Positions 12,001 through 39,366 of a stretch of 64,000 bases of DNA are shown piece after piece (the stretch's first letter is position 1; every line of letters begins with the position of its first letter). Source of the stretch: Candidatus Omnitrophota bacterium (GTDB lineage Bacteria; Omnitrophota; Omnitrophia; Omnitrophales; Aquincolibacteriaceae). The DNA lies in assembly GCA_035352955.1 (NCBI GenBank), contig DAOPYQ010000003.1:208206-272205 (forward strand). Direction: 5' to 3'. A model generated the notes under the pieces. That model did no database searches. It was not told where the DNA came from and saw only the letters and a program-made list of their open reading frames with translations. Both the position numbers and the translations under genes were made by a program.

Positions 12001-15000
12001 GGACGGATAAATGCAACGTAAACAATGAACGCCGCGGCCACGAAACCGCCAAAGCTCATCCACGCCCACGAGGCTCCCATATAGGGAAGAAGCGCTTTCC
12101 CGACAAGCAGAAAGACCGGAATGAACCCAAGCAGAAGTCCGCGACGGGTCGTGTTAGGACGGGAAAATTCCCCGAGCGGTTTGCTCTCGGAAGAAAGACT
12201 CGCGGGTCTGGCCGGCGGTGACGCAAGCTGATGGTGAAAACCCCAGAAGTCTTCGGTCGCTTCGACAATGTCCATCACATCCAGCACGGAAGTCAGGTAG
12301 GTCGTACTGCCTTTTTCATCCGTCCACCGGAAAAGATCTTTAACCAGTTCAAAGATCTTTTTAAGCATTCCCGGCCGCGTCACCTCTCCCCCATAACCTT
12401 TCACCCCGCTGAACGGTCCCCCGATATTCTGAAGATAGTTCAACACGGCGCCGAAAAGCGAGGGCACAAAAACCATTGTCAGGATGATAAGCCCCAGCGC
12501 CTGGGCCGCACCGACCGCCGAGATCCCGTAAACTCCGGGCACAAGCGCGGCATACAGCATGAACACGAGCGTTGAGCGCCACATCGGATTATTAAAGATT
12601 CCCTTGATCGGCTTATCGTCCAGATATCTTGCCGCACGGGTCCGGGCAAAGCTTTTTCCGATGAACCTCAACCACGTCGTCGGAAGATCGTTCGCCCGCA
12701 ACCATTTATCCATCTTCTGGATCTCGGACAAAAAGTGCATATCGCGATCGTCCCCGATAAGCGCCTTACCGTCAGCACGGGCCAGGAGAGCCGTGCTCAT
12801 TCCCTGGAAAGGCGGTTCGATGCTGGCAAGTTTTTCGAAAAACTCGAACGACAGATTATCCAGGGCCTTATCACTCCAGGGCATCCCTTTCAAGTGGACC
12901 TTTTTCCAGAGCTCTCCCTTCGGAGAATCCGTTTCCTGGGCCGTCTTGTAGGCACGGAGATTTTTAAGATTCGCCCGCGCCCAACGGACCTGTTCCCAAC
13001 TGTCCGAAAGCGTCGCCGTCACGATCTCGTCTTCACCGTTGGTTTTCGCCGCCAATCCGTTGTCGGCGTTCAGGTTCAGGTCCCCCTGTTTCAGCCCCAA
13101 GATCTTCTCTTTGTCCAGTGTATCCAGATGCTTGAACAGAATACCGTCAAGGAGAACGGTCCGGGTGTAATACGGCCCCCAAACAAATCCCTTCGTCGGC
13201 CTGGCCATACGGCGCGAAACCTTGGTCGGGATGGTGTATTTACCGAACGCGCGATTGTAATTCACGAGACCTGCCGTAAACATGACGGTCGGGAAAAGCA
13301 TCTTGTGGATCGCCCGTCCCTGCGTCCATTTCATACTGGCCTTCTTCTCCTTGTAGAAGGTCGCCCCCTGAAGAACGCCGATATCGGGCCGCTTGGCGAG
13401 CGCCTGCACGAAATAAGGCACCGCGCCCGCGAAAGCGAAATTCGCGCCATCCACCGTCGTGGTAAACCTGACGTTCGGCTCCGGCTCGCCTTCCTCATCA
13501 AGCACGTATCGGGAAGTCTTCCGGATCTCTTCCGGATAGACCGACGCGAGAAGTGTCCGGTTCAGCCACTGTCCTTCGAGTTCCAGGGTTTTGATCTCCG
13601 TCTTGAGGGATTTCACTTTACGGCTTGCGGCCAGAACCTCTTTTTTCTTGGCGGATTTCTCCGCGTCGTTCGTTTCCGGCATCGCGTTGGCAGCCGCCAA
13701 AACCTGTTCCGCCGCCGTCAATGCGTTCCGCTTGGCCCCCAAAAGATCAGCCACCTTCATGTCCCGGGAAATCAACGGGAGATACGCCGTCGCGCCTTCC
13801 AGCTGCGTCTCGATCTCACCGTAATGTTTCGGCTCTTTGGAGAGAACCGCCGCAACCGCATCGCACCAATGTACATAGGTCTTGGTGTTGATGCGTGCCA
13901 TAACAGGTTGAAGGATCGCCTGCCACGCCGCGTTATCGTTGGCCTTTTCAAGCTTTCCGAGGATGTCCTGGGTCACCAAGCCAAGCTCTCTCAGGATCGC
14001 AAGATCGCTCGCGAGGAATTTCTTTTTCTCGGAACTTCTTTCAATAAGGTCTTTTTTCAGCTTCTGGATCCGCGCCGACATCCCCAGATCCTCCCATGCC
14101 GCGCCAAAAAAAGCGCCTTCGTGTTGAACGACGGCATTGACCGCATCCAGCCATTGGGCGCCCGTCATGGCATTAAGATCGTCAGGAGTAACCGTTGCAG
14201 GTTGCAGCCCGAGTTCCATCAAAATGAACTTGTCGCTATCCCGCAGAGTCCCGGCAGCGATGCGGGTCTTCATCCCGGCAAGCAATAGCGGGATATTCAG
14301 ATCCGAAGCGAACACGGCGTAAGAATCTTTTTTCCGCGGCATGAGAGCCTGGATCATCGGCGTGTCCTTCACCTGATCATAGGGAACGAACCAGCTGTCT
14401 TTGGTCGCCACACCGAGAATGAACGGGGTTTGGGGATTATCAAGCATCGGGAGAAACGCCTTGTAGGGATTGGCGACGGACATGATCTCCGCGGAATAGA
14501 TCGCCGCGAACGCTTTTGCTTTCGCCGCGTCGATCTTTGCCTCGATCTCCGCTACTTTTTCTTTCGCTTCATCCAGTCTCTTTTGTTTGGCCTCTTTGTT
14601 TTTTAAAAATGTTTTCCTCAATATTTCCGCAGCCTTTTTCGCCTCGGCCTTCGCGGCTTCCAGCTGGGACTCCAACGGGGCAAGCCCGCTCAAAATACCC
14701 TGGGTCTCACGGACTGTGGCAAGGGCGGCACCCAGCTCATCGGCCGTGGCACCGTCAACCACGGCATTCCGGATCCCGTCGCCGTAGAGCGCCTCCAAAA
14801 ACACCCGGTTAAGGAAATTCCGCACGGCTTCCGGTTTCTTGACATCCTCCTTGGCCTTTGCAATAGCCTCGAGAGCCTGTTTGACAGCCGCATCTTTACC
14901 GGCCTTCTCGGCAGCATTGGTCTCCGGCATTCCCTCGGCCGTCGTCAAAGCCGCCTTGGCAGTCTGCAGCGCGTTCTGCAAAGCAGTTATGTCACCCGCT

Positions 15001-18000
15001 GCGGTCGCAGCGCGATCGAGCATTTCCTGGGGCACACCCGCGGCCTGCAACTGTAAAAGGACCTTCTGGTGAAGAGCCGTATCAGCCATCACTTTCCTTA
15101 GAGCAGCGATCCACTGGGCTTCCGTAATAGAATTGAGCTGGGCCGGAGTAACCGTAGCGGGATCCAGACCCAGAGCATTCAAAATGAGCGCGTCGCTCGC
15201 ACTCCCGGAAAGCACCGCCGCCGCAAGCGACCGCGAATTGACCTTCAAGGAAAGATTGGCCGTCACATTCCGGTTAACAGCCTTCCTGTCCGGATTTGTG
15301 TCATCCTTCAACGCTGCCCGGAGTTTTGCGGCACCCCGCTTGATATAAGCTTCGATCGAAGATCGGGAGCCCAAAAGGAACGGCCGGCCGCTGCGCGTGT
15401 GTACTTCCACCGCATCCGGATCCGCACCGTGAAAATCTCCGGCGCCGTTCCCCGGCGTGCCGTCCTCGCCATACCCCGTAAAAGAGCCGAGCATCGGAAC
15501 GTTCCTGGCCGGCTTGCGGTCTCCGGGCCAATAGGAAATCATCATGCGCTCGTGCCCCTCGACATACATTCCCTGTTCATCATCAAAATAACCGAGATAT
15601 TTCCAGTAAGCCTGCGCCCGCTTATGAAGTTCTTTCATCATCACTTCGGCCGTCATGTCCCCGGTCTTGGAATCCGTGATCTTGGCTACCCAGCGGGCAC
15701 CCGCCTGAAGCACGACCCGGGCCTGTTTAAAATTGCTCCCGATCAGGATCCTTGCCAGCGAATTCACGACCTTATCCAGATCTTCCGGTCCGCCATCCAT
15801 GAGCCAGGGTTGAGCGGTCAGCACCAGTTCCCCTTTTTCAAAGGCATACTTTACGCCTTTCGGCAATTTCTTGAGCATATTGGCCAAAAGGACATCGTTC
15901 AGATCCAGCACCCGGATCCTTTTCTGGAGGGCGGTTTCCCGTTCGGCTATGCTCTCTTTCCAGTTTTGGATCGCACCGGCGTAAGTCTTTTCAAGCGCGT
16001 CACGGTTCAGCGATCCGATCCCTGCCCGAAGGGAGGCTTCTTCAATTCTTGCGTTGTTGATCTCTTGTTCCGTCTTCAGGAGAGCCTTCTCACCCGCATT
16101 GACCTCGTAGATCATCCCCAAAACCGTCTTGCTCGCACGGGAGAACGACCTCTCCAACCGAATCTTCCGCTGCGACAACGCTTCTTTTTCCGCTCCGGGA
16201 TCCATCCCTTTAAGCGCATCGGTCGTCTTCTCCAAATCCGTCTCGATCGTTTCCATCTCCAGCTTTGCGGCTTCCAGAGAGGATATCCTGTCAATGAGTT
16301 TGCAAATGTCCTCGAGCTTCGCCTGTTCATCCTTCTGTTCCTGAATGTCCAGCGCCAGCTTCTTTTTATCTTCCCCGTCGGGCAATCTCGCCAGCTGCTC
16401 GTTCATTTTCTTGAGATTGTCCTTGAGCTCCTTGATCCGAGCCTCGACCAAAGCGACCGTCTCGTATTTAACTTCCCTGGGAAGACCTTTCACAAGATCC
16501 TTCAGCTCTTTCCCGGCGGCATCCAAAACAACATCGGCCGAGGCCTCGATCTTCGCGGGTATATTGCGACGAGGCGTGTCGTCCGTAAGAAGGTCGTTAA
16601 GCGCCGCCGCCAGCTGATCTTTGGTTGCGCGGTCGATCACCTCGGCATAGGTTCTCCCCATAACGCCAAGCCCCACGAGCCTTTCGATAATCTTGTCGTT
16701 CGTCTTCCTGAAAGAAGCATTTTTCAACATAGCTTTAAGACCCGCGACACGGGCGTCGGGGATATCCGCCGCGGTAAACGCTATCGATCCCGCAAAGGTT
16801 CCGGCAAGACGTACTTGTTGGCGATGATTTTCGTACAAAGCCAACGCGGCATCCGCTGCGGCCACAAGTTGCGTCAGCAAGGGATCTCCGGGATTAAGAG
16901 CGAGCCTCTGCCGGAGAACGATCCCCTGAACAAATGCTTGCGCGGTAAATATATCGGCGTTGCTTTGTTCAATCTCTCCTTCCGGTGCCTTCGTCCGGTC
17001 TGCCGCGGGGATATTCTGGAAAACCCGGAGCAGGCCGATCTCATTTTGCAGACGTAAAATATCGGCCTTTTGAACCGCTGTACGCGTGGCCTCGGGTATC
17101 GCAAGAAGCGGCGCGACGGCGGTCTGTCGCTCCGCCACAAGGGCCTCAACCTCATCCACGGACAGTTCAAAAGAAATTCCGTTCGTTGCCGCAAAACCCT
17201 GATAGAGACCCGCCCTGGCGCGGGTCAGATTAAGGGCGCCGGTCAACTCCTCTTTCGTAGCGCTGTCGATCAGGACCGAATCATCCGTAACGGGTTTTTT
17301 CTTTTGTATTTCCCTGATCTTTCTCAGACTTGCGATCACAACCTGATTGATCTGCGCGTTGCTGGGATCCTTAAGCGCCGCGCGCAAAGCAGCTTCGTCC
17401 ACCGCGTCCTGGGAGATGAGGCCGCTGTTGGCCACCTTATCGATATCCAGAGCTTCCTGAAGGACCGCGTCAAGCTCGGGTTCAGACATTTCCCAATTCT
17501 TCCGCTCCTGAAGGGCCCTCTTTCTCGAAGCAAGCGCTTTTTTTGCGGCGGAAATTTCCGCGGAAGTTTTCCCGTCGGCTCTCATCGTGTTGATTGCATT
17601 CGCGTCCGCCAGGATCGCCTGTTCTTCCTCATGGATCTCCGCCTGTTCGTCAGCCGGAATATTCCTTTTCCCGGAATCAATGTCCCCCCTGACAAGACCG
17701 CTATACCGGTCATTCGCCATCCATACCGCCAGAAGGAACGGAACAGCGACCAGGGGAAGGCTCCACCAGTTCAACACAAACCACGCCACGATCGGCCCCC
17801 ATCCCAAAAACGCGATCCCGGCAAAATAGCCCCAGGCCGTGATCCCTGCGGCGACAAGACCGGTCAGCAAAAAGAACCCTTTCTGTTGCGCCAGGAGCGT
17901 GGCCCAAAAAGTTTCGCTTAAGCTGTTATACATTGACTTATAAATGAACATGAAGAGCACGACAGCCACCGCCGAAATAGCGACCGCCCACGGCGTGACC

Positions 18001-21000
18001 ACTCCCAGGGCCCAGAAAATAAAGATAAGATCGGTAAACCCGAAAAGAAATTTCCCGACCACCATGCGGAAATCGGCCCATTTCCTGTTCGTGATCCAGG
18101 CTCTTACCTGAGCCGCTTTTTCAGCTTTCACATCCGCCCGCAACTCCGCTCGCACTGAAGATTGGGCCAACGCTGAACCATAAATTTGATCAAGGAGGCC
18201 ATAGTTCAGGCTCCGAATTTCTTCTTTGCCCGGCAGGCCTTCATCCGCCGCAGTCTCGAAAGCGCTCCGAACCGCGGGATCAATACCCCGGTTCGAGATA
18301 GTTTGCGCTATATCGTTTAATCGGCGTTCGGCATCGGCCAACGCATTTCCAGCTCGTTCAACCTTGCGCCCATCAAAGAAGACCGCCATCCTGGCTTTCG
18401 TCACATCAAAATACCACTCGCCCTTTTGGGACAACCAATCGAACACGTTAGAAACATATTCGAGAACTTCACGGATCGTTTCCACACGGAAAGGCCAAAT
18501 GACCGGCCGCAACGCCTTAACCTGATCCCAACGATGGTCTATCTCGCTGCGAACCCGGGTCTGCAAATAATCCCTATCGGCCCGGCTGGTCGCCTGATCA
18601 CGTTGTTCAGATTCAAACTCAGCTCTGAGGATCTTGCTACGGGATATGGCTTCTATCCACTGTTCCACTAACCTGTCGACTTTGGCAGGTTCCAAACCTT
18701 TGGCGATCAAGGCTTGCTTCAAATCCTCGATACTTTCAATTCGTTGAAGCAACCGCTGCATCTCCAACGAGAGTTGTGTCCTGTTAATCTGACCGGAAAG
18801 AAGCTGCGGCAGATCCGTACGATCAAGAACCTTATTAAGCGCAAATGCCATTAATGAACCATTGTCCTGTCTTTTCAGATTGCGCAGAATTTTCTCAAAG
18901 AAAGACGTCTTAGCGAGTTCTCCTGATATAAGGCGGTCGCTAGCCCTATCTTTTCCAAGCTCACTATTTAAGGCAGCGATATCCATTTGGGCCGGCGTAA
19001 ATCTGACTGCCCGGGTCATATATTGGTACTTGGCAAATTTAAAAATCACCCGGAAGAGCAGCGCCGCAAAAGCGGCCGCGACACCATAGAAGAAGATCTG
19101 CTGAAGAGGGGCTTCGACTCGGCTGAAGTTCAGGAAATCGGGCAACTTATGTTCCGTGTTGCTCCACGGAAGCCTGAAATATTTATTCCCGGCATCGAAA
19201 TTGATCCCTTTCGAGAAAAAGGTCTTTTGCCCCTGCTTGCCCGGGATCTTCTCCGCGGGCGCAACCAGGTCCATCCAGTCCATGTTCCCACGCTGGGTGA
19301 TCGCAGCCGCCTTGTCCGTCAGGATCTGCTCGCGGGCATTCAGGTCGGTTTTGGGAATATACGGCACCAAAACCCCGTTCTTGTCCCGGGAAGAAAGAAG
19401 GATTTCATAAAGACCCAGTTGCTTCGCCGGGTCGGGATTCTGGAGATCCTCAAAGACTGCGATCCAGAGCGGTGACCCGAGCTTTGGCTTCGGCCGGGGA
19501 TTCGAAACGATCCTTCGTTCATTCTCAGCCTGATAGGACACGTCCAGCAGGCGCTGGTATTTGTCCGTCACACGCTGCATAAAATTGAAAAGATCGAGCG
19601 GCGTGATCGCCCCCTTATCGAGAAGCGCCTGGACACGGGCTTCAAGAGCCCGGAGCTGGATCGCCTTAAGCTCCGGATCTTCCTTCCATTTTTCCTCTTG
19701 GGTCCTTTCAATACTGATCTTCAGAGAATCGCTGTAGATCCGGTTGTCATTGAACCCTTTGTCCAGAGTGTTATCGATCCCGGTCTGACGCTCGTCCTTA
19801 ATGAAACCTTCCCGACTGTACCGGGCCGCCGCGGGAGTTTCCGCTTCGACTCCTTCGGGAAGAAGTTTGTAGAGGTCCATCGCCCCGTCCTGGCCGAAAA
19901 ATCCACCGAACAACGCAGGAACAAGCCTCGCGCCAAGCGTAGACTGCCAGGCAACGGGATCGGGCTGAGCGGCAAGCCCCACGTCGAGGAGGCTGTCCGC
20001 TTCAAAAAGGATCCTGCGGATATCGGGATCCGGGTTCCCGGCCGCTTTGGCACGGGCATACATATCTTTGGCAAGATCCAGCCACTGATCAAGGAAGGCC
20101 TGAGGGATCCCGCGGTTCGCGCTCCCCTCCGCGATCCTCTGGAGTTCTTTTTCGAATTTTTCCTCCGTCGCAAAGAACGGGACGGCGGCCCGCTGCCTCT
20201 CCGAAATGATCCCCGCAACGCCCTTGGTCCCGCGGATCCCGTCAAACCTCGTCCTTAACGAATCCTCCCGAGCCTTAACATCACTGAATTTTTTCAGTTG
20301 TACCTTGATCTCCTCAAGAAGATTTTCGGGATCGCCGTCTTCCGGCGAGAACACGTTTTTCCCGTCATCACTCGTTTTCCAAAATCCATTCGCCTTAACG
20401 GTCGCCCGGTCCAGGACTTCCTTGGACCGGTGGAACACCTTGGCCTTCACAATACGGTCCTTGACCTTGTCGAGAGACTCGTATCCCATATCCTTCAGAA
20501 TACGCGGCATGATATAACCGTTCAGGAACAATATTTCATCCGCCGAATACCCCGTCCGGAGCATCTCCCCGGCGAACAATTCCAGCTCGGTATTGTCGAA
20601 GAGGATCGGGGAATCTTTCAAAGCGCCGGCCTCCTTATCGTTCAGGACGTTTCGCCGGTCGCCAAGGACATTAAAGGCCTCTTCAAGAACCACGTCATAG
20701 GGCGCGGTCTGATAGATCCCCTTCACGGCATCAAGTCGCGCTTGACGTTTGTCTTCGATCGCCTTGCGGCTGTTGGAAAATTCGTATTCCAGGTTCTGCT
20801 GCTCCCCCGAACGCTCGCGAGCCTGGCGGTCCTTCTGGACGCGGTAATTTTTAAGAAACCAGTCCGCGTAATCACTCAGGAATTTTTCTTCGCCGAGGTT
20901 CGACCGCCCGGAAAGTCTCGAGAGATCGCTCACCGGACCGTAAGCCGCACGTTCCAGAGATTCCTTGGCGTCTTTCAGCGCGACCATCAGTTCATAGAAG

Positions 21001-24000
21001 ATGGCTTCCGCCTCCGCCGGAGAAACTCCCATCGCATCGATCTTCGCCTTCTGGGCAACCCCCCAATCCATCCCGAAAACGCTCCGGGAGGCCGCCTCTT
21101 CCTGGATCACAGGAAGGTCCATCCCAAAGATCTGGCGGTAAAGGAACCGGTAAGCCCGCATCGACTCATATCCGGGCGCCGGCCGGGTGTCCGTGTTCGT
21201 GTAAAGTTCCGTCGAATACTTATCGACAAGATTCTGGATCGCGCGCGCCGTGCGGAGATCGGCCATTTTGTTGCCCTTCTCGCTGATCGTCAAAGACGCC
21301 CCTCGCGCACCGCGGACAAGCCCGGGCAACGCTTCCGGAGAAGAAAATGTTCCGTAGGTTTTGTAAAGCACCGCGTCCACGATCGCCGCATCCGCCAACC
21401 ACTGATAAAGACGTTTCGGGAGTTCCCCCGGCTTTTTATCAAAGAACTTCGCCCCGTTCTCCTGGATCTGAAGCTCGCGGGACACGGTCCCAAAGATCTT
21501 TTCGATCGGCCATTTAGCGTGATGCTTCAGCACCCAATCTCTGTTGACCGGGTTCCCGTCCTTGTCTTCCATGATACCAAGATTGTTCAATCGCATGGCA
21601 AGCTCGGCAGGGAAATCGACCGCCACGTCTTTATAAGGATTGCCGGTGATCTCGCGGCCGGTCACCGCCGCAGCCAGCAACCCGCGGCCGGTCAAGAGGT
21701 TCGCGTAGGCATTCCGTGTCTCAATGGCCTTCGCCCGGCCCTTCACCGGATCGGACTCCACTTCTTCGCGAAGCAATACCACACGGGAATAAGCTGCCAG
21801 GTCGCCGCGCGGCAAGCTTTGAACGGGGAGCATATCCTCTTGCTCGAGTTGTTTTGCCTCATCCGGTCCCACGCGATCGTCCACGACCGGGTAAAGCGAG
21901 TTCGCGGCCTGCAGGAACATTTCGATCCCGACGCGTTCCTCGATCTTCTGACTTGCTTTTTTGGGATCCGCGGGATCCGCAAGCCCCCAACGAACCTGTT
22001 CGCCAACCCACGCCTTCGCGTCATCGATCGTGTAAGCCTCTTCCTTCAGCCCCGGACGATGATCTTTCCCTTCGATCCTGGCCGCCATCCGCTGGCGTTC
22101 CCCTTCAAGCATCCAGAACGGCTTCGCGGCGGGATTCTTGGTGTATCCCTCGAGTTCCGTGCTGAGATCCTTGCCGGCTGTTTCCTTGGCATTAAGCACC
22201 GTCTTGACCCAACGGTAATATGTGGGAGGTTCCAGTTTTTCCAGACCCGGCCGCGCATGCCGTAGCTCCTGGATCATCGTGTCCTCGGCATCCAACTCGG
22301 TCCGCTTGACGGGAAGATTGATATCGGGGAGACGGCTCGCGTCATAGATCTTCACCCGGCGATCGAGAACTTCTTTGGCCTTATCAAGGATCTGATGGGG
22401 GCTGACATCCTTGTTCTCAGAACCTTTCAAGGGCAGTCCTTCTTTTTCGATCTGACGAAGGATCTCCACATCTGTCGCCATGATCAAGCCGGAAGTGGCA
22501 CGTTTATCCTTCTCCATGGCCTTGAATTCGCCGGTATCCTTGTCCGTCGCCTTGAGATATTCTCTGGCGTCCTTATCAAATTCTTTCCCCATGAGAACAT
22601 AGAAAAGCGTCCAGGCACGTCCTTCATTCTCAGGAAGGATCGCACCGTCCGCTTCCAGGATCCCGTCGAACATATCCCCTTTTCCCTTACCGAGCTGGGT
22701 CGAAAGGGCAAAAAGCAATCCGAAGGCCTTCCCTTCCTGGTCATACGAAAGATCATAGGTTTTCCGCGCCTCACTTCCGGTCCAGGAGTTCGGTCCCGTC
22801 AGGGATTTCAGCGAATCGCTCAAGTTCAGCGCGACGCGGACCGTGGCCTTCAACTCGGTAAGACGGCTCGCAACCGAGCGCGACAAATACGCTTTCCGGT
22901 CGGCTTCTCTTTCAAAATTGGTCCCGTTCAGAAGATCGTCCAAAAGGCCCATCGCAGTGCCCATCTCGACGCCAAAACGGATATCGTCAAGGTTCTGACG
23001 CATCCGGGCCTTAAGGTCCGCGATGTTCTGATCCGTCAGGGTGATCTCGCCCCGCGCGTGGCGGTCGAGGAGCTTCTGAACTTCACGAGCGGGCGCGGCC
23101 CCGGGATGAAGGATCAACTGTTCGTCGGCAAGAAAGACCGGCTGTCTCACATGCCCGTTGGAGAGCGTGACGGGTTCCCTCATGGTCTGCATCAGTTGGG
23201 CCACGATGTACCCGACCGCGGGCCATTCTTCGTTCGAGATCTGGCGGAGCGCCTGGATCCTCATCAACGATTCATCGAACGCGCGGATCTTCATTTCGCT
23301 CGGGTGATCTTCGAGAGCGGTCACCAGCTTCCCGTCCTTGAAATGTCCGCGCACCATCGAAAGGAATTCCATCGCCGCCGGCCGATTCGTGCTGAAATCC
23401 ATCATCCGGCGTCCCTGCAACTGTCCGACGAGTTTGTTGAAATTGTAGGAGGCCATCATCTGCTCGACCTCGACACGGATCTCCGGATCGTTCAGCATGG
23501 CTTCCGTCAGTTCGACGCCCCTCATCTTGGCGTAAACCGACCAGGCCAGAATATTGCCGATCTCATACGGGTCGTTCACGCTGAGCGGAATACCCTTCGC
23601 CCGGTAGACCTTATCGAGAACGATTTTGGTCTTCGGCATGGATTCGATCAGATCGCCGACCCAATTCATGAGCGCGGCATCGTCTTTAGCGTTGATGTTC
23701 CGGAGCAACTCGGGATCATCCTTCACCATGTCGAACATGCGGGCGAAGAAATCCGCGAACCCGATCTCGCCGAAATCGATCCCGGCATCGCGCAGGGACT
23801 CCTTGAGAAGACCCGACATCACCACCGGCTCATTCCAGTCCTGCGAGTACAGATTCCCCCATTTATCCCCGGGAAGAAGCATGGTCCCGCCGGCCTCCGC
23901 CTTCGCGAGAAGTTTGGCCTTGGCAGCACGGGCATAAAATTCTCCGAGCGGGATGATCCAACGCTCGTTCAGTTGCTCCGGGGTGAGGGTTTTGAGCAAA

Positions 24001-27000
24001 TTATGGCGTTCCGCCACGCGACCGAGCTGGTTTGCAAAAAGGATCTTCAGATTCGCCGGAAGATTTCCCTTCCCCATCTTCTCAAGCAAATAGTCCGCCC
24101 GATCCTTCAGTGCCGGATAGAGAAGTAATTTATCGTCGATGACCTGCGACACGATCTTGCCGTCCGGAAGTTTCTTCGGCATCAGAACCTCGAGATCCAT
24201 CGATTCGATCACGCGCCCCTCTTCGATCGGAGCCCGCTCGGCCTTGACCGCGGCCTTCGGCGCCCCCTCTGAGGTCGCCGCAACATCAAAGGCATTCTTC
24301 AACCGGGCCTCAAGCCCCTCGACACGGGCCTTCGCCCGGAGCACATCCTGCTCCCGGATATCCGTCATAATCTCGGAAGCAAAAAAGAAGATCCCGGCCA
24401 GCGCCGATCCGCTGATCGACCGGTCCAAAGCCGCCCGATAATCGTTGCGCGCCAATTCAAGCTCGGCGCTGATCTGCTCACGGGTCTGGTTCGGCGTTCT
24501 GCCAAAAGCTCTTTCGACTCCCGCAAGCGCCCGGGACTGAGACCTGAGCGCCAAATCCTCGGCTAGTAACCGGGACCACCCGGACGAAAAACCAGAAACT
24601 CCGGAGGAAAGTTCTTCGACGACGTTTTTATAAACGAGAGACCGGCGCTCCGTCTCGACCTGTCCCAGCCTGCGGTTGATCTTTTGCCGGGTTTCATCCA
24701 GCTTCTCGGCAAAGGCTTTTTCCATTTTTGCTTCGGCTGTTTTCGGGTCTCTGCCATAATCACCGCGGAACCCGTCCAGAAATTTCTCGGCATCCTTCAG
24801 ATCCAGTTCCCCGCTCATGAACAGACCTGCGTTCGGCGCAAGAAACCGGCTCTTAAGCTCCGAAAAAACCTTGTCGTCTTTCAGGAACTTCTCGAGATCG
24901 CCCCGGACCTGTTCGAGACCGGTTTTTCCGGCAATATAATCGCGCTGGCTCCGGAGACCGCTCTTCCCGTCGGCCCAGATCCCGTCCATCCACCGGCTCA
25001 TCGCGACAGGGCGCTGCGCCTTGGGAATATTGTATTTGTCAAAAAGCTCCGTCTGGGCCTTCTGGAACGCGCTGACCCGCGCTTCGGTCTCCTTGGGAGC
25101 CAAAGCTTTCTCGGCCACGGGTTCGGAGGTCACGAGAAGCCCGCCCTCGTACCTCGCCTTTCCGACCGGCAAACCCTCCATGGAAAGTCCCAAGATCTTC
25201 GGGTCGATCTTGTTGCGGGTGAGAAAATCGACCAGGTCGATCTCCGCGCCGCGATGATCGAAGTAAGCAAAGTGAAATGCCCGCTGAGCGTTCTGAACTT
25301 CGTTGAGATAATTTTTGAAATAATCGAGGCCCTGGTTCCCCTTGAGAACGTTCTGGAGGGCCGTTTCATAAGCACCCTCACCCGTCACGGCGGCAAGCCT
25401 CTCGTCATAGATGGTGACGAGCCTTCCGGTGGATTCAAAATAGTGCGCTTTGGACCAGAGCTCCTGCTCGAAATTTTGCCGGTCTTTGGCATCCATAAGC
25501 TTCATTTTCTCAAGCAATAAGGCATTCTCCTTGAGCGACGACCACCAATCCCCGCCCCAAAGCTGGATGGAAGTCCCGGCCGTAATGTCCTGATTGAGGA
25601 CCTGCTGGCCGTCCGCATTCAGAAGACCGAAACGGGCCCAAACGCTCGCCTGTCGCGTCATGATCTGCTCGCGAGTGATATTAAGACGTTTGATCACTCC
25701 TTGGGTGTCCCGGACCTCGGGATTTTTTTCCGATAACTTGGCCGCATCGATCTTCCCCGTGTTGATGTCCTTGAGAAGTCTGTCGACGCCCTTGATCCCG
25801 AAATCGGTCTGGGAACCGAGGACCACGGACTCAATATCAAGGGAGAACCCCGTCGCTTTATAGAAATTGCTCCGGGCTTCCAGGACGGAACGCTCGGCTT
25901 CGAGGATCCGGTTGGCCATCAGGAGCAACCGTTCCTGGGACGCCATTTTCTCCTGATCGGTCGCCTCGAGGGTCTGCACCTTCAGCGCGTGCGCCCGCTC
26001 CACGAGCGCTTTCACCTGCCGCTGCTCCTCCGGGATAAGCCGGGTATACAAGTGTTTTTCCGCCTCGTATTTATTGAGAGCCTTGTAGAGATCGTGCTTT
26101 TGGTCCTCAAGCTTCGTCTCGACATCGTCCCGGGTCTTCTGATCGATCGAATCCCGCTTTTGCCCTTCAAAATCCCAGATCAGTTCGCCGAGATAGAATT
26201 GCGCCTTTACAGAAAGCGTCTGGTCCGTGTAGCCCCCGCTACGCTGCCGCCCCGCCTCAAAAAGAGCGTCTCCTTCATTGAACCCCGAGCCGACCACGCC
26301 CATTTGCGTGCGGCTCTTCTGCCTGGCAAGATACTGGTTGATCTCCATATCCAGCCCCGCGATCTTGTAAGGCACAGTCTCTTTCGCGATCTCTTCAACG
26401 GTCTTTCCGGCGGCTTTTCCGGCTCCTACAACCTCGCCACCCGTGGTTCCCCCCGCAACCTCCTGGTCGATCATCGTGTGATCAATACCCCGCTGGAACA
26501 ACCGGTCTTTCTGGTCGCGAACGCTGCGCTTGAGGCTCGCCAGCTGCTCGTTCCAGCGCTCAAGCTCCGTCATATCGCGTTCCCGGGTACTACGGTCGCC
26601 GCTCGTGAAAAGATTTGAAAAAACACGGAACCAGCCCCTGTCACCGGCTTTTTCCTTCTCATACGCGATCCGCGTTTCGGTGCTCTTGATCAGCTTGAGG
26701 CCCGTGCGGTACTCATCTTCAGCCGCTTCCTGGTCCGCCATAAAACGGTCCAAGGCGTCCTTGGAACCAAGAGCAATTACCTGGTAATCGCGCTGCAAAC
26801 CGCGGATCCTGTTCTCGCGGCCTTTGAGATCGTAGAACAAGCGCGACGCGAGCGGTCCCGCCAAGGGAATCAGGTCCACCACTGAGGCAGCGCCATAGCC
26901 AAGCCCGTTCCAGAACGGTCCGACCCCGGCTTTTCCGTCTCCGTTCGTGTCCCAGAAGTAACCCGCCGCAACGCCCCCGTCGAGGACAGACATCGTCTCA

Positions 27001-30000
27001 CGGCGGACCCCCACGCGCAGGTTCCAGGCATAAGCCTGAAGGCCCAGCATGTTATCGATATCCGGCATCGCGGCCATCTTCTCAAGCGCCAAGCGGATCG
27101 TTTCAAACTCGGCATAAAATTTCGGATAAGAACCGGAATTAAGGAGATAGCGGCTCAAAAGGAAAGCATTCCCCGCCGCAACGGAATCCTGCGTGGCATG
27201 CATCAACCGATGATACTGGGACGCGCGATCCTGCCCCCCGGCAAGAACCTCGCTATAAGCTCTCGAAGAGGCGATTAACTGCGCACGAACCCCAGCGATC
27301 TCCCGGACGGAGTTCTGTTTCTCTCTTTGAACGTTCGGGTTCTTTTCAGCCGCCGCGTCCCGTGCGAGGTGCTGTTCCACGGCTTCGAGCTTGTTCACAA
27401 GGACATTCTGATCGGCCACAAGCTTTTCGATCCCGGCCTTGCCGGAAGCCAGGACGGTACCGTCCCCGGCAACGACTCCGGGAAAAGGATCGAGAATATT
27501 TTCCGCCTGGGCAGAATCCTTGGCGGCGATCTTGGCGGAGGCTAAAAGCCCGTTCAGAGGAAATTCCGTCCCGTTGACCAGCTGCCGAAGCGCGCGCATG
27601 GTTCCCGCATAATTCGAACGCGTCGCGAGTAATTTTGTTTCGGCCTGCCCGACATTGGCTTCGGCGGCAGCCAGCTGGACTTTCAACTCATCTCGAGGCT
27701 CTGCCGCGCCGCGGGCTTTCGTATCAAGATCCACGGTCTCGCGAAGTTTCTCAAGAGAACGCCTCTCACTCGAAAGCTGATTGCCGGCGGCAGTCACGAG
27801 GTCCCTTTGATAGCGAAGAAGACTTGTCAAACTCCTCACCGCGGCTTCGAGCCGCTGCGCGGCATCATCAAAATACTGGTCCGCGCTCTCGCCGGAAAGG
27901 CGGGTCTGGACCTTTTGTGAAAAATAGGAAATATTCATGAGGGTCGCTTTAATGCCGACGCCGATCTCGCCTTTCAGCTGATCCAGGCCGCTGACGTTCC
28001 AACCCGTGGAATTATCATAGCTGACCCCGTAAAGCGCGGAAGCAAAGACCCGTCCCCACTCAACGGTCCGGGTCTGCAGGGCATCCACATCCTTTTTCTC
28101 TCGCGCGGTGCTGAGCTGGGTCTTCGCAGCGGCTTCATAGAGCGCGCGGTCGAGCAAATCCGCGTTTTTCCCGCCGTCCGCATCGTAAAAATCAAGCCAA
28201 CTGTCCGCGTCCTCGATACGTGACTGATCTTCCTCCGCAAATATTTTCGCGTCATTTTCCGTGAAGGCCTGCTCCCGCGACACAGGCGCCTTCCATTCAA
28301 ATGACCGCTCCGACAATCCTGCGTCCGCAAGAGCCTTGCGGATATATTCGGCATGTTTGGGATGTTTTTGCTGGATCTCATCAAAACGCGCCTTGAGGAT
28401 CTTGAGCGCCTGATCCGCCTGGCCGATGCGCATCCGGACCAGTTCCTGGTCTTTGACCGTCCCTTTCATCTGGCTTTCCATCGACAGCGAGTTGATGTTA
28501 GCGCTCAGATAATCGACGGGCTGGCGTTGACCTTCGTTCTCTTTGGTCACTCGCCCGGCATCCACGGCACCGATCGACTCGTTGAACATTTTTGCTTTTT
28601 GCATCGCGGCGACGACTTTTTCCTGGGCCGCAAAATCGGCGGCCTGCCGCTGGTGATCCCGTCTGAGCCGGTCCAGTTGCCGGAAATCGTCATCAAGCTG
28701 ATTCTGAAGCTGACGGATCTGGTCGACCCCGTTGCGCACGTCATACTGGAATTGTTCCTTTTCGACCCCGCGATCAAAAAGGTCCTGATTGCTTAACCAA
28801 AGATCGGCTTTGAGCCCGGCCCTCAGGGTACCGTCCGTCGCGATCGAAACTTCAGGAATCGCGACCGTCGCGTTCACGCCCGCAAGCGGCTTTTCCTGCG
28901 CGATCCCGGATTTGATCCGGGCGGCCGCGGCAAGGATCCGCGCTTCAATGTAGTTACGGCTCAGGCCCATTCCTTCCATGCTTTCCTGGACGTTTTCCAT
29001 CGTGAACGCCGCCGCCGGGTCCTGGATCTCGGCATTCGGTCGATGATTGGTCAAACGCTTGATCTCCACGAGACGGGCTTCCCGGCTCGCGCGCAGGACC
29101 TCTTTCTCGCCTTCGATCCCCTTGATCTTGCTGTCAATGATCCTGAACGATTCGGGGGTCTTCGTCACACCCGGCTGCGACTGAATGTCGGTCTTGATGC
29201 CTTTTAGCCGGAAAATCATTCGATCCGCCATCGTCATTTGATCGTTCAGAAGAGCGACCTCATAAGCATTTTCATAAAAAGAGCGTAACCGGGTATCCGC
29301 GACAAGTTTGGTGTCCGCTTCCCGGGACAAAAGTTCGGCGGCGCGGACTTTGGTCTCCCAAGTACGGCTGAGATTCACGGGCTCGAAACGGAACACAAGC
29401 TCTCCGTTGACCAAGTCGGCCGTTCCGACTTCTTTCACATAGGTTTGTTGCTCGGTCGTAAGCTTCGTCCGGGCAGCAGCGGCGGTCGGGATATGGATCA
29501 CCGTCCCCTGATCGGGATCCGCACTGGGCGTATAATCCAGTTTCGCAGGAGTTGTCGTAGTCGTCGTGACCGTGATCTTCGTTTTTTCCTGACGAGGCGT
29601 CCATTTCACGTTCGCGTAAAGTTGGAACCACTTCTGCAGAATGCCCATCGCCTCGAGATTCGATTTCGCGATCTCCTGATCCTTCTTGGCCATCAGAAGG
29701 TCCAGATTGTTCGCCAAAAGATCCTTCGCCATCCCGTCAAGAGTAGGCGCCATTTTGTCCTGGGTGGTAGCCCACGTGGTGCCTGCGGCCAACCCGGAAA
29801 AACCGGCGATCGGAAAATCCTGCACGCTCGTGGCGGTACGATCCACAAAAGATTTTGGAACAAACGTTTTTTCGCGCGCTCCTGGCGCAACAAAAGTATT
29901 GGCAGCACCGCTCATCGCGGGGGCCGGCGGCGTGGCCGCCTCCGGGTTCAGGAGCGGTGTCATAGGCGCAACCTCTTCGGTCGCGGGCACGCCGGTCACG

Positions 30001-33000
30001 CCGACCATCTTTTGGGCCAACTGGTCCAGCGTCTCTTCGACCATTTTGAGGTCTTGGTCGTTTCGAACGCTCCGCTTTAAATAATCCACGCGATCGTGGA
30101 ATGCGGCCCGGTTTTTGTCATCCTTGATCATGCTTTCATTGCGCTTCATGGTGGCATCGAAAACTTCCAGCGCGAGTTCCAGCTCCGCAGGGACTTTTTC
30201 TTTGACTTCCTGAACCTTCTGGATGTCTTGCGGAACGCGCGGGACCGCGGTTCCCATAACTTTCGCCGGGGTTGGAGTCACTTTCGCCGGGATCGGCGCA
30301 GATGTCACTTTCTTGATCGCTTCGGGCGAAAGCAGATCCCCGGAACCGGGCAACACCACCGGCGGCAACTCACGCTGCCTCGCCGTCGCCGGTTTCGCGG
30401 CTTCCGCCGGATTCACCGTTCCGGTTTTCGAAACCGCCTCCGTCCCGGAAACATTTTCTTTCGCCGCGTCCTCTCTGGCAAATTTGTCCGCGAGCGTCCG
30501 TTCTTCATCCGTCATCGGTCCCACAGGCTCGGGGGCAAGCGGGATCACAGTCCCCTTGGATTCCTTGGCAGGCATCAATCCGACGGCGCTTCCGAGGAAT
30601 TTCACGACCTCCACAGGCCATCCTGAAAAAGTCATGCCCTTCCCCGTCGCGGAACTTCCGGTTTTCTCCGGAACATAATCCAAACGGGCCGGCCCCTCAG
30701 GAGCGATCAACATCTTCGAGGCCTCGAATTCAAGATCGGTGAAGATCTGCTGAGGATCCGCGCCGTTCTTCAGGGCTTCTCTCATCGTGACCGTCGATTC
30801 ATAGAAAGCAGTATCCCGGTATTGCGGATCCACCTGGTCCCTGAGGTTTGCCACACGCCGGTCAAACTCATCCACCGGACCCGCCCATTCCTCGCTCTTG
30901 GCCGGCTCCGCGATCACAGCGCCGGCCCCGGCAGGGCCTTCCACCATAATGCTCAGAACACGGACGGCATCCGTGGTGGCTTGCTCCGCTTCAGTCCCCC
31001 TCAGTGCGGCCGTCTTCATATCGGCCCCAAAGAGTTCTACGGAACCGCTCACTTCGATCGTCTCGTTATACGGGTTCAGGTTCCCGCCGTTCATAAGCCA
31101 GTAAAATTTGTTCTCTTCCTTCCCGGTCGTCCGGTTCAAAGCGCCCTTGGCCTGGCCGCCGATATAAGACAGAACATACGGGACCTCTTCCCGGGGAATG
31201 GCCACCACACCGCTCTTCACCCGGTTAAGACGCTCGGAAAAAATCCCCCCGATCGCACGCAACGGTTCCGACGCGGGATCCACCGAATACCGCACATAAA
31301 GCTTCCCATCCGTCCCGAGAAAATAATTCCCGCTCTCGAAATGATGCCCAAAACCGCCGGCGTCCTTCATGCTTTCAAGAACGTCATCCCGATAACTCGA
31401 CGGCAACGAGCCACTCTTCGAAACGCTCTTCAACCACGACTCCAGATGCGCCTTCGCCGCCTCCGGCGTCACAGCAGCCGGCTCCACCACGATCTTCTGC
31501 GCGACCGCCGGCTCCGCCACTTTTACTTCCGTGACAGCCAACGGCGTTTCCGCCTTCGGCGCAGCCGCGGATTCAGCTTTAGCCGCAACAGCTTTTTCAG
31601 CAACCTTGGGGGTTTCGACCTTCACTTCCGTTCTCGGCGCAACCACGGATTCTTCCGCGCGCTGGTTTACCCCGCTCAACCGATCCGCAACATTGGCCAG
31701 TTTTCCTACCGTAGCAACAACCACCGAGGGCATCATCCTGACCCCGACGCCCCCGATACCCGCTGCGGGCTGCTTCGAAGTTTCCGGAACGGTCTTGGCG
31801 CCGGACCCCTTCGCTGAGATCGACGTCCCGGCGGCCATCCGTGACTGGTACGCCCGGAACTGTTCTAAAAGTATTTCAAAGTGGGATACAGGATCTCCGT
31901 TGGGACGGCTCGTGCGATACACCGACCAGCCCGCCAGAGCGGCTTCAAGATCCTTGATCCGTTCGCGGGGAATCTTTTGCGTGGACTCCCGATTAGCGCC
32001 AAAAAGCTTTTCCACTGTAAACCGGACTGCAATGTCCCCGTCCTTGTCGACAAAATAAGCTCCCGGATTATATGAAGTCATGGTCCAGAGAGCCTTGCGC
32101 ATCGCGCTTTTCTCGTCACTCGGAATATCGTTGGAATTCTTCACCCACGTTTCCACGGACTCACGCGCTTTCACCTGAGCCTCGGTATCGAACGACACGT
32201 GGTCCGGAGCCCTGTCGTTCCGCACGATGTCTTCCCCAAGCTTCACAAAACTGCCCGGGATCGATTTCACTCCGCGGACAAGGCTGGTCCCGGCTTTGGC
32301 GACGGCATGCTCGACCGTCTGAACCGCGCCGCGCTTCTGATCGGCCGGAGCATTCTTGAGAACCTCGGTCGTTTTCGCGTAGGCTTCGATCGCTCCGAGC
32401 ATTTCCTTGTCGTCTAAACGAACCAAAAGGATCGGTGTTCCACCTGCCGCACGCTTGAAGATCCACCACGACCGGTTCTTCCTGGCAACTTCCAGTGCTT
32501 CCCGCGACGATTTCCCTTTCGCGAGCTCCCCCGCGATCGTGTTAAAAACCCGGTCATAATCCTCGGGAGCGGCGTTGCTGAAGCTCTTGTCCAGGATCAC
32601 CTTCTTCAGATGATCTTTCGCAGCCTCTTGGGCATTTTCCAAATCACCCACTTTAAATTCCTTCACAACCGCCGCCGGCGTTTCCACAGCCACGGGTTTC
32701 TCCGCAACTCTGGGGGCTTCGGTTTTTACTTCCGCCTTCGGCGCAACCACGGGTTCAGCTTTAGCCACGACGGGTTTTTCAGCAACCTTGGGAGTTTCGA
32801 TTTTCACTTCCGCTTTCGGCGCAACCACGGGCTCAGCCTTGGCCACGACGGGTTTTTCAGCAACCTTGGGAGTTTCGATTTTCACTTCCGCTTTCGGCGC
32901 AACCACGGGCGCAACCTTAACAACAACGGGCTCAGCCTTAGCCACGACGGGTTTTTCCGCGACTTTCGCAGCAATCACCGGCTGCGGCATTTCAGCCCTC

Positions 33001-36000
33001 AGCTGATTCATGGCCATCGTGACATATTCTGCTTTCCCCGGACGCGGACCGGTGCCGAAAACTCTTTCGGCTTCGGATTCGACCTTTTTCTCCGCCGCGG
33101 CGATCCTTGCCTGCCAAAGCTGGTACGGGGTCATCGGTTCCGAGCCGGCATCCCCTTCAAAAACATGCCGTCCCACAACCTTACCCGCTTCGTCCCTAGC
33201 AATCTTGACGGTCACCTGGACGTTTCCGGTCGTCTTGTCCGCCACTCTCGTCACTCCGGCCGCAGCCGTAAGCCGGTTCGCCCAGAAAAGTTTGGACATC
33301 TTTAAATCAACGAGCTTTTTTCCTAAGGCGTTCTTGGTAGCAGCATCGGTAGCCGCCGCCCAATCCCGCTCCATGTCCCGGACATCTTCTCCCAAACGCC
33401 GTTCACGCCATGGAGCAATCAAGCCGTCCAAGACCAAATGCTCCCCGCCTACCACCGCGCCAACCACTCCGGAGTTCACGGTATTCGTGGTAATCCCAAG
33501 CAGCCCCACCGCCCCAAGGGTATCCGCGAACGTGGGCTGTTCACCGCTTCTTTGCATCTCGGCAAGCTTCACCTGTTTGTCGTGGTCCCCTTCAATGGCT
33601 TTCACAAGCGGCGCGATAAAAGTAATATTGAGCCATTCATCCAGTTTTTCCGCATAGCTAACGATCACGCTGATCTCATGAGTGACGAACCACATGCTGA
33701 ACGTCCCGAAGACCATCCCGATCCAGAATTTCCTGCTCGTCAGAAGATTGTGCCTCGCCTGCCGTTTGACGACGGCTTCCGGCGCGAGCTCAGAGAGCCG
33801 GGAGTCGATCGGGGAACCATGCTGGGCCAAAAGACCGAGAAGAGCCTCGTCCACCGAAGAACTAATGACGCTTGAATCCAAACGGTCGAGATCAAAAGCC
33901 TTTGCGGAAAGGTACTGCTCCAGAAGCCGAAGAAGCATGACTTTTTGGTCCGGCGACAAATCACTTTTCTGAACTGACTGGACGAACAGGACGAGTTCCT
34001 GCGCCGAACCTGACTCCAGCAGAAGCCCCTGATTTTTAAGGGTCCGTACCGCCTCTTGAATTGCACGGGGATCGCGTGGATTAAGCGAAGGGTTCAGGGT
34101 CCTGAGGATCGTGTTCGTCGCGACACGGACTCTAAGCTGAAGCATGTTCTGTTTCAGCTGGGTAGAATACTGGAGAAGAAAGTTCAGCATTCCGGAACTG
34201 CCGAACGCACCGATCGTAAAATGAAATGTTTGCGATTTGATGAAATCGACGGCCGGAGTATTCCAGACCAACCCGTTGTTCAAGAGGTCGAATTGCGGGC
34301 CCATGTGCGGCATGGGAATATTAATACCGAATACATTCAGCGCCCGGGTCGCGAGATCCGCTCTCCCGGCCGTTTCAACCCCCGCATGCAAAAGCGTCGG
34401 ATCAAGCCCCATATGCATCCCGCCAAACACCGCGAGGCCCAGCAACGTGTGGATCACGATCTTCCGGACAATCCAGCCGGTCGTCACGTCCTTCCCGCTT
34501 TTCCGGAGCTCCTGGTACTGGCGGTAATCACGGATCGCCATAAAAGACCAGACCCCCGCCATCACGATCAAAAACACGGGGAGATTGGTCCCGACCAAAG
34601 TCAGGGCAACACCGCTTACCTGGCTGTAGAGCATCAGACGGCCGCGGTTCTTGATAAAATTGGATAGCCCGGCGATGCCGCTCATCTGGAGCGCTACCCA
34701 CATGTAATACCCCGGAGGGGTGCGCTGCAGAACCAGCATTTTTCCGTTGAAGGTTTTTTCACTTTGAAACCGGCTCCAGAAACCTTTCCCCGCTTCGTCC
34801 CGGATCTCTTTTTCGGAGGCCTTGATCGTCGCTTGGGCCATTTCGTCGGAAAGCCAGCGCTGGTTCCTGCCGCCGAGCCAGAAATACTGGATCGGGATAC
34901 GGATGAACTGGATGAAGAAACCGTCCAGAAGATGATAACCGACACCGAAAAGGATGTGAGCTGTTTTGCCGAGCACGAACGCGATACCCTTTTTGAAAAA
35001 GGCTCCTCGGCCGCCGGCTATCTGAACTTCCTTACGAGCCTCTGCTTTGACGCCTTCCCAGAAAAGAAAAACCACGGCACCAGCGATCGATCCAACGATC
35101 GCAATCGGCAGAATGGCCGCCATGCCGGTCACTCCCAAGGTGACCGCAATAGCCCCCGTCAAGATCCCGCTCAAAATCCCGGTAACCAGTACGCCTACCC
35201 GGCGTTTGTCCACTTCGTCAGAGGATTCTCCGAACGCCTTGCTCTTATGGATCCGGACAAATTCCGAAAATTCCTTGATCGACAAATTGACCTTGGTCCG
35301 CCACCGGAGTGTGGAGTCCGAGATCTTAAGCTCGCCATACTTGCCGGCCTCAGGATTCGCGACTTTACCTCCTATATAGAAGGTCTCCCCCAGGGCCGTC
35401 TTAATAGCCCATGCCTGCGTTCCGGGCATTTGTTTGACTTCAAAGCCAAGCATAATGCCAAGAGCCCGCCAGAACGCTACGGCAAATCCTATAGCGGTAA
35501 ACCCGAAAACGATTGGGACCGAAAAACCCAAAAAGCTGAAGATCGCCGCGAGAACAATCCCCACTCCCGTAAACACGGCCAGTGTCTTGAGAGCACGGAC
35601 GCTCAGCAGCCGAAACAGCAGTGTGGGTCCGGCCTCGGCAAGAGCCGCCCCGCCCGGAGCGTTCAAAATACGGCCATATTCAACGGCAACCCTTTCCCGG
35701 ACTTCCGCTTCTCCCGTCGTTGCCTGTACTGCAACAGGCGCGGTGGCGGCTTGAGCTGCCGGCGCAGGGGCCGGAGCGGCAGCGGCGGCAGCTTCTCTTG
35801 CCGCAGCTTCATCCATGAGTTTCCTTTGGGCTATTTTCTCGGCAACCTTCGCCTGGACCGCCTCAATTTTCAGGCGGACCATATAAACGCTCAGCGGAAT
35901 CTGATGTTCGACTAGCAAGCGGATCTTCGGAGCGATCTCGGTCGCGAGTTTGTCCGCGCCATACCATATAAGGATCGTGTTCAGCGTATCCTGCGGGATC

Positions 36001-39050: not shown

Positions 39051-39051
39051 G

Positions 39052-39117
39052 AAAAAAAAAAAAAAAAAAAAATACCCGACAGCGAAAGACATCGGGTATT
39101 TTGGGTGGACCTGCCCT
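39052..39117 (-). terminator. Rho-independent terminator on the minus strand. Hairpin acccgaca...tgtcgggt followed by T21 (= plus-strand A21 at 39052-39072). Copy 1 of a duplicated 45-bp element (39073-39117)
   Basis: Seen in sequence: read on the minus strand the element is agggcaggtccacccaaaatacccgatgtctttcgctgtcgggta followed by 21 T. Stem is acccga/tcgggt with a 12-nt loop. Confidence 0.6.
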
Positions 39118-39327: not shown

Positions 39328-39366
39328 GAAGGGCTGGCCCAATAACCATTAATTTTTAAAAAAAAT

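Follow-up and report, generated by a model that had tools for sequence, protein, structure and literature searches.

All full-length giant genes described in Omnitrophota encode numerous transmembrane (TM) regions, and topology calls for these giants are unreliable according to the same authors (West-Roberts et al., 10.1101/2023.11.21.568195), who define two types of giants, Archaeovorin and Dockerin, by their domain content. In a survey of 916 Omnitrophota proteins of at least 10,000 amino acids (aa), DeepTMHMM found TM helices or a signal peptide in 93.6%; 38.9% fell into the class that has both (SP+TM), the mean was 22.2 helices, 137 of the 916 (~15%) had no Pfam match, and repeated Pfam domains were present in 65% of the Pfam-positive long proteins (10.64898/2026.06.07.730766). 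Here we analyse 64,000 nucleotides from a Candidatus Omnitrophota bacterium (contig DAOPYQ010000003.1, assembly GCA_035352955.1; hereafter the window), whose minus strand carries one such giant gene, and we focus on the first cluster of hydrophobic segments of the encoded protein. This interval is probably the first membrane-embedded module of a giant (~13,900 aa), non-repetitive, domain-‘dark’ Omnitrophota envelope protein of the SP+TM class.

The window protein shares with the SP+TM class an Omnitrophota genome, a single open reading frame (ORF) of at least 10,000 aa and a signal-peptide-like N-terminus combined with ~20-25 TM-type helices in clusters, near the reported mean of 22, and it belongs with the ~15% that lack a Pfam match. 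It differs in that its topology is read from hydropathy and homologues whereas that of the surveyed proteins comes from DeepTMHMM, in that its upstream flank consists of housekeeping genes and not of type II/IV secretion or carbohydrate-active enzyme genes, and in that it is nearly repeat-free, with one 26-aa tandem repeat. TM helices are therefore expected and ordinary for a protein of this kind, and the window protein fits the SP+TM description closely.

Archaeovorins are likewise giant Omnitrophota membrane proteins with numerous TM regions between long soluble stretches, but they measure at least 30,000 aa against the ~14,000 aa found here. They consistently contain glycosyl transferase, methyltransferase, glycosyl hydrolase, peptidase, SAM-methylase and NUDIX domains, with HEAT/TPR repeats being common, and most have a divergent SecA DEAD/preprotein-binding domain next to the TM regions, the detection of which partly needed structure prediction (10.1101/2023.11.21.568195). 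None of the Archaeovorin-defining domains was found by Pfam in the 12,868 aa encoded in the window or by NCBIfam in aa 1-10,000, and Pfam found no SecA family in the 12,868 aa, in a comparison made by sequence search and not with whole-protein structures. Dockerin-type giants share the membrane anchoring, but the window protein has no dockerin, TSP3 or discoidin repeats (Pfam, self-BLASTP), and its TM helices begin at aa 1008 whereas those of the Dockerin type lie only near the C-terminus. As neither the defining domains nor a SecA-like domain turned up, we assign the window protein to neither the Archaeovorin nor the Dockerin type.

Results

The first hydrophobic cluster

We found seven hydrophobic segments at giant aa 1008-1401, together spanning window positions 34404-35585, which are arranged as three tight helix-turn-helix hairpins and one single helix (Table 1). 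Helices were called by two hydropathy scales (Kyte-Doolittle, KD, and the biological scale of Hessa 2005), by shuffles and by conservation in homologues; the Hessa values were used with a cut-off of summed deltaG <=2 over 19 residues. An earlier note on this DNA had placed a multi-pass TM cluster in the interval 33900-35950, which corresponds to giant aa 886-1569, and the seven segments, supported by hydropathy, shuffles and homologues alike, bear this out.

Table 1. Positions of the features described in the text, in order along the giant protein; aa numbers refer to the giant protein, KD is the Kyte-Doolittle score and KD19 its value over 19-residue windows.
Feature	Residues (aa)	Window position	Strand	Remark
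Low-GC spacer, 950 bp		38607-39555		5′ of giant gene
Giant ORF		3..38606	minus	stop-free frame; gene leaves the window at window start
Signal-peptide-like N-terminus	1-39	38490..38606	minus	from sequence; KD 1.85
Conserved N-terminal head domain	~60-570	36897..38429	minus	defines the family
Variable soluble linker	571-1007	35586..36896	minus	no KD19 peak >1.05
Conserved membrane module (predicted)	993-1715	33462..35630	minus	holds first TM cluster
Hairpin 1 (TM1 + TM2)		35442..35585	minus	KD up to 2.42; summed deltaG -1.05
TM1	1008-1028		minus	
TM2	1032-1055		minus	
Hairpin 2 (TM3 + TM4)		35058..35198	minus	KD 2.18 and 2.52; deltaG ~0
TM3	1137-1159		minus	
TM4	1162-1183		minus	
Amphipathic motif between hairpins 2 and 3	1207-1256	34839..34988	minus	40% mean pairwise identity
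Hairpin 3 (TM5 + TM6)		34533..34631	minus	KD 1.97
TM5	1326-1340		minus	
TM6	1343-1358		minus	
TM7, single helix	1383-1401	34404..34460	minus	KD 1.70
FDLL/FHFT stretch	1437-1490	34137..34298	minus	39% pairwise identity; most of the module's invariant columns
Semi-hydrophobic helix H9	1625-1650	33657..33734	minus	KD 1.42; 45% pairwise identity, the module's highest
Lone TM helix	6504-6522	19041..19097	minus	KD 2.2; deltaG 0.03
Second TM cluster, ~4-5 helices	6849-6964	17715..18062	minus	collinear with P0010, P0031
Third and largest TM cluster, ~9-10 helices	8678-9205	10992..12575	minus	collinear with P0031, P0027, P0022

The hairpins are built alike. In hairpin 1 a three-residue turn (S-V-P) lies in an uncharged run of 39 aa preceded by R999, R1004 and K1007, and the aligned positions are uncharged in 4 homologues. 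Hairpin 2 turns at T-G within an uncharged run of 47 aa, with KRR ahead of TM3 and KAEARKE behind TM4; TM3 contains a GxxxGxxxG motif (GILSGILTG). The hydrophobic peptide TGAIAVTLGVTGMAAILPIA, translated by hand in the earlier note, is real and occupies aa 1150-1169, at 35100-35159 and not, as given there, one base further on at 35101-35160. Hairpin 3 turns at N-L between the flanks KNRGR (before TM5) and RDYRQYQELRK (after TM6), and is uncharged at the aligned positions in all aligned homologues. TM7 follows R-K and is itself followed by a net-negative loop; its 19-20 residues are uncharged in 5 of the 6 aligned sequences, the sixth having a single acidic residue.

That these stretches are buried cores of soluble domains, or a by-product of composition, seems to us barely credible. 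The protein is rich in Ala, Leu and Val, and shuffles of the whole protein reach a KD of 1.6 ~19 times by chance; for this reason we discarded KD 1.6 alone as a test of chance and replaced it by run length and deltaG. In 300 shuffles the longest stretch lacking D/E/K/R/H/N/Q averaged 20 aa and never exceeded 32, whereas it reaches 47 aa in the protein itself, so that runs of 39 and 47 residues without a charged or amide residue were reached in 0 of the 300. There are 16 such runs of at least 17 aa (shuffle mean 2.8, maximum 8) and 68 windows with a KD of at least 2.0 (shuffle mean 6.8), while the four helices of hairpins 1 and 2 have a summed deltaG <=0 on the Hessa scale. Furthermore, the segments lie close together, distant homologues have them at the aligned positions, and K/R-rich sequence flanks them.

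A further argument of the earlier note, the composition of the plus-strand ORFs lying across the cluster, carries less weight. Both ORFs (34056-34667 and 34764-35915) are present and run antisense to the giant frame in codon register, but the enrichment that had been called striking is modest, D/E/K/N/Q/H/Y amounting to 33-37% against 27.7% for the whole antisense frame, and it adds little to the membrane reading.

Additional clusters of TM-type helices occur further along the protein (Table 1). Together with the conserved first cluster, those at aa 6504-6522, 6849-6964 and 8678-9205 support the proposal that the protein would be an integral membrane protein and not only a surface fibre. We considered whether the later clusters are paralogues of the first and ruled this out, self-BLASTP giving no match between them; in the giant protein self-BLASTP found no internal repeats, the sole repeat being a 78-bp tandem unit. 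Pfam detected no family at E <=0.01 in aa 1-10,000, where NCBIfam was also without a match, and the only Pfam signal past aa 10,000 is a sub-threshold one to Ap4A_phos_N at aa ~12233-12275 (E 2.6e-4, 21 bits against a cut-off of 23.1).

A conserved module of ~720 residues around the cluster

An HMMER search with aa 500-1699 against 1.84 billion cluster representatives found 46 proteins. Six of the relatives (P0002, P0003, P0004, P0005, P0043 and P0044) align collinearly with aa ~993-1715 and share 23-33% identity with it, and an alignment of six sequences (A1, the window protein and five homologues) was used to describe the module. Common to the aligned homologues are seven uncharged segments, turns of 2-5 residues and net-positive loops 2-3, 4-5 and 6-7; the loop after TM7 is net negative in 6 of 6.

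Conservation is unevenly distributed along the module. TM1-TM4 are its least conserved part, with pairwise identities of 18-27%, and TM7 reaches 36%. The best-conserved motifs lie elsewhere (Table 1): between hairpins 2 and 3 is YHLLDGF..R.PI.YFWLG....RWLSDE (in aligned form YHLLDxF...YYWLG....RWLSDxE), and after TM7 comes a semi-hydrophobic helix of the pattern FDLL.xG ... FHFT..F.SS..L.F.L (in aligned form FDLLxLG ... FHFTxxxFxSS), in which F1439, L1442, G1445, T1464, S1470, F1476 and L1478 are invariant. Helix H9 follows the pattern FW...F...MWFV.HEI and leads into an AIEGD motif. Judged from these alignments, the first TM cluster is part of a conserved module of ~720 aa whose hydrophobic helices diverge in the way typical of lipid-facing ones. 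Since the loops and the two semi-hydrophobic helices show stronger conservation than the TM helices, the module would be more than a greasy anchor.

We considered a reading in which the module works as a membrane domain in its own right, be it a channel, a transporter, an insertase-like unit or a membrane enzyme, and is not mainly an anchor; we regard it as unlikely. The position of the conserved motifs in loops and semi-hydrophobic helices (YHLLD..WLSD, FDLL..FHFT..SS, MWFV.HEI, AIEGD) would fit such a function, as would the glycine-zipper type of the TM3 motif, and bacterial bestrophin channels come out on top when the AlphaFold2 (AF2) model of the module is searched with Foldseek. These bestrophin matches are, however, insignificant (best 4wd7_A, E 0.11, TM-score 0.09/0.20) and were obtained with a model whose mean predicted local distance difference test (pLDDT) score of 46 is too low for it to speak for or against such a fold. 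Moreover, the module has no match in Pfam or NCBIfam and none to PDB sequences by profile search with A1, the sequences of hairpins 1 and 2 show poor conservation, and the module occurs in only a few of the family's clusters.

The secondary structure of the AF2 model is all-helical, with breaks at the hairpin 2 turn and at aa 1341 in hairpin 3, at low pLDDT. A word-indexed protein search with the TM cluster or A1 gave no match, the list of 8,000 candidates being probably saturated by hydrophobic words, and a search of genome contigs with the TM cluster was also without a match.

N-terminus, head domain and linker

The N-terminus quoted in the earlier note, MISWQQPTIRPWLRAVAFLTAFVFAFTSVVW, begins precisely at the minus-strand ATG (38606). 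The helix it forms had been taken for a signal-anchor; this part of the description is weaker, since the N-terminus looks more like a cleavable Sec signal peptide, as predicted from its layout: R10 and R14 lie in the n-region, aa 12-31 form the h-region, and AYA/AA comes at aa 37-41 (the slash marking the presumed cleavage point). Across the family the pattern is an n-region K/R-P-W-L-R, an h-region of ~17 aa and then W-A/D-G or AYA/AA; it is kept in more than 30 members, in many of which W-A/D-G comes straight after the h-region. Distant stand-alone homologues of the head carry classical signal peptides.

The signal-peptide-like N-terminus is followed by a head domain that shows 40-77% identity to more than 35 cluster representatives, in proteins of up to 7,853 aa, and has the invariant motifs QDAHxNxxAQ, LEG, RD and GGFHT. 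Its AF2 model reaches a pLDDT of 76.9 and has no significant fold match in the PDB by Foldseek; Pfam found no match in the head across 17 family members, and a profile search with the head alignment (A2) gave no meaningful PDB match, a match to an SMC coiled coil (E 0.0011) falling in the non-head part. A word-indexed protein search with the head returned only contig-end fragments of less than 1,000 aa, all of them Omnitrophota ‘hypothetical protein’ entries. In another Omnitrophota contig a stand-alone head homologue of 565 aa (P0060) comes directly after tgt-yajC. A resemblance of the head to erythromycin-esterase, ChaN or Tiki/TraB-like proteins, based on the QDAH...E...R...GGFHT motifs, was also considered; the only match ranks eighth at E 0.44, no significant profile or fold match was found, and we keep it as a lead.

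Most family members diverge past aa ~570, where the linker begins, and those that share the head generally have TM clusters after it. Kyte-Doolittle values over 19 residues stay at or below 1.05 throughout aa 32-1007, which leaves ~975 aa without a hydrophobic segment and agrees with the soluble region of roughly 900 aa proposed earlier. An Ala/Pro-rich tract (aa 934-966, window 35709-35807) closes the linker. One head-sharing relative of 4,462 aa (P0030) contains a Peptidase_M23 domain at aa 1635-1731 (E 8.8e-13), the sole confident Pfam match within the family; four other relatives (P0003, P0005, P0009 and P0037) gave no Pfam match. Peptidase_M23 cuts peptidoglycan, and its presence in a relative points to the cell envelope.

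Proposed anchoring model and sidedness of the cluster

In the best reading of these data, the module would be one of several places where the chain is anchored and so stitched to the membrane. The Sec-type signal peptide would start the export of the head (~510 aa) and the linker, and the three hairpins (TM1-2, TM3-4 and TM5-6) would then fix the chain in the cytoplasmic membrane. The uncharged hairpin turns of 2-3 residues would reach the far side while the K/R-rich flanks remain on the near side, so that each hairpin would send the chain back to the side from which it entered. TM7, as a single helix, would take the chain across. The clusters at aa ~6500, ~6850-6960 and ~8680-9200 would repeat this stitching, and the result may be a mostly alpha-helical chain of ~13,900 aa that is fixed to the membrane at intervals and has long soluble parts in between.

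Several points weigh against this model. Hairpin 3 and TM7 are of moderate hydrophobicity; they miss the Hessa deltaG cut-off and are weaker calls than the other helices. The better conservation of the loops suggests a specific activity that the word anchor does not capture, and the AF2 model of the module, computed from 6 sequences (pLDDT 46, predicted TM-score (pTM) 0.33), is too poor to read helix packing from it. The SecA-like domains that have been proposed to aid the export of other Omnitrophota giants have no Pfam match in the 12,868 aa. Finally, applied to the conserved K/R flanks, the positive-inside rule would make the chain before TM1 cytoplasmic, whereas the signal peptide would have the head exported. 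A signal peptide found throughout the family and the positive-inside rule thus point in opposite directions, and the sequence by itself is compatible with either sidedness. The scan of aa 32-1007 revealed no hidden helix that would reconcile the positive-inside flanks with an exported head, and counting helices around the M23 domain of P0030 gave no consistent answer on sidedness.

A less likely arrangement is that the same helices have the opposite sidedness. The hairpins would then enter from the cytoplasm, and the N-terminal region of ~975 aa would be cytoplasmic together with the flanks and loops; TM7 would be the first true crossing and would export the conserved stretch that follows it. 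The N-terminal helix would act as an anchor, uncleaved or unconventional, and most of the giant protein would be found at the membrane's inner face. The net-positive flanks and loops and the net-negative loop after TM7, seen in all six aligned sequences, are what such an arrangement predicts; turns of 2-3 uncharged residues would be cheap to translocate, Pfam found no SecA-like export aid, and giants with TM helices alone are described as having a mostly cytoplasmic bulk (10.64898/2026.06.07.730766). Against it stand the family-wide n/h/c layout of a Sec signal with A-x-A-type sites and the classical signal peptides of the stand-alone head homologues, to which the lack of any additional hydrophobic segment in aa 32-1007 that could flip the orientation must be added. 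The Ala/Pro-rich linker before TM1 and the M23 domain of the relative also suggest exposure to the envelope.

Pore-forming colicins and alpha-pore-forming toxins have a hydrophobic helical hairpin of ~40 uncharged residues with a very short turn and charged flanks. The hairpins described here share all of these traits, the uncharged run, the helix-turn-helix, the very short turn and the charged flanks. We weighed whether the uncharged hairpins of ~40-47 aa are inserted from outside into the membrane of another cell, in the manner of these toxins, for predation or attachment, and consider this highly improbable. The charged flanks would stay on the side of entry and the head appears to be exported; in addition, Omnitrophota have been proposed to be predators or episymbionts whose giants are implicated in prey attack (10.1101/2023.11.21.568195), and alpha-pore-forming toxins lead the Foldseek list for the N-terminal head. 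These head matches are nevertheless insignificant (E >=0.16, TM-score <=0.13), and for the colicin or alpha-pore-forming bundle there was no Pfam match, no PDB profile match and no significant Foldseek match in the PDB. The window protein differs from such toxins in having three hairpins plus further helices in a conserved polytopic module, the many later TM clusters resemble an ordinary polytopic membrane protein, and the housekeeping neighbours gave no contextual support.

We also regard it as improbable that the head and the ~720-aa module together form an undescribed, Omnitrophota-specific envelope machine, whose K/R-flanked hairpins are inserted from the periplasmic side into the cell's own membrane or into that of a prey or host. 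If it were true, the giant protein would be a membrane-stitching or membrane-attacking device and not a passively anchored scaffold, and the insertion would run against the positive-inside rule.

The giant gene, its neighbours and its host

The minus-strand frame is free of stops from the ATG to window base 3 and encodes 12,868 aa within the window. Full lengths were obtained from gene calls on two contigs recovered by exact look-up of the neighbouring hydrolase: 13,915 aa in an ENA contig (L081; ERZ795026 NODE_168), identical in sequence to the window, and 13,941 aa in a 448-kb JGI contig (L082; 3300010352 Ga0116247_10000007) that is 99% identical. The giant gene is thus intact in two independent assemblies. 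The tandem repeat (78-bp unit, 26 aa, VAKAEPVVAPKAEVKIETPKVAEKPV) is present in 3.1 copies at window 32692-32930 (giant aa ~1893-1972), and the JGI contig has one extra copy of the 26-aa unit, 13,941 against 13,915 aa. In NCBI assembly GCA_035403665.1 the ORF is split at this repeat (1,903 aa and the remainder), which is probably an assembly error. Metagenome contigs gave no match to an exact 50-mer from the window start or to the last 500 aa encoded in the window.

A GGGAGG Shine-Dalgarno sequence lies 8 nt 5′ of the ATG, and the low-GC spacer in front of it (Table 1) contains an AT-rich stretch, a poly-T tract of ~30 nt near 39040-39070, two copies of a terminator-like repeat of ~45 nt and a tRNA-Ala(CGC) on the minus strand at 39367-39439. 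The ATG is a credible start, and these elements give the giant gene an upstream region of its own.

The upstream neighbours are housekeeping genes, including TrpA, TrpB, RuvX, an M16 peptidase, LepA and LepB, which places a signal peptidase I (LepB) gene near the giant gene. Judging from LepA, which is 86-93% identical to that of Candidatus Omnitrophica/Omnitrophota metagenome-assembled genomes (MAGs), the host is a member of the Omnitrophota. A block of ~10 upstream genes is syntenic in Omnitrophota MAGs (LepA, LepB, SPOR, GNAT, SPOR, YajQ, patatin, an unnamed ORF, an AMP-binding enzyme and a hydrolase), and the loci matched through LepA in Omnitrophota genomes stop ~1-2 kb short of the giant gene.

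Some further genes were noted in this neighbourhood. A BatD-domain protein and a TPR/SH3 protein are encoded upstream at 57486-60160 among the housekeeping genes, and the gene calls of the ENA and JGI contigs include two small PilZ genes near YajQ. A related Omnitrophota contig (L088, 8089-18886) shares the upstream synteny and has a histidine kinase and a response regulator between the hydrolase and the head gene; gene calling splits the head gene there into ORFs of 691, 1,160 and 571 aa, and nothing but the head resembles the window protein.

Discussion

The window protein is a further, well-delimited example of the giant Omnitrophota membrane proteins that were recently described as a class. 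The mere presence of TM helices would not surprise a specialist on Omnitrophota. What is new here is the precise helix map, the conserved module that had been without annotation, the head that defines the family and the explicit conflict between the topology signals. Two conserved blocks without a match in Pfam, NCBIfam or the PDB, the head of ~510 aa and the hairpin module of ~720 aa, have thereby been mapped. As the disagreement between signal peptide and positive-inside flanks is itself conserved, this family may serve as a test case for how enormous chains are threaded into the membrane.

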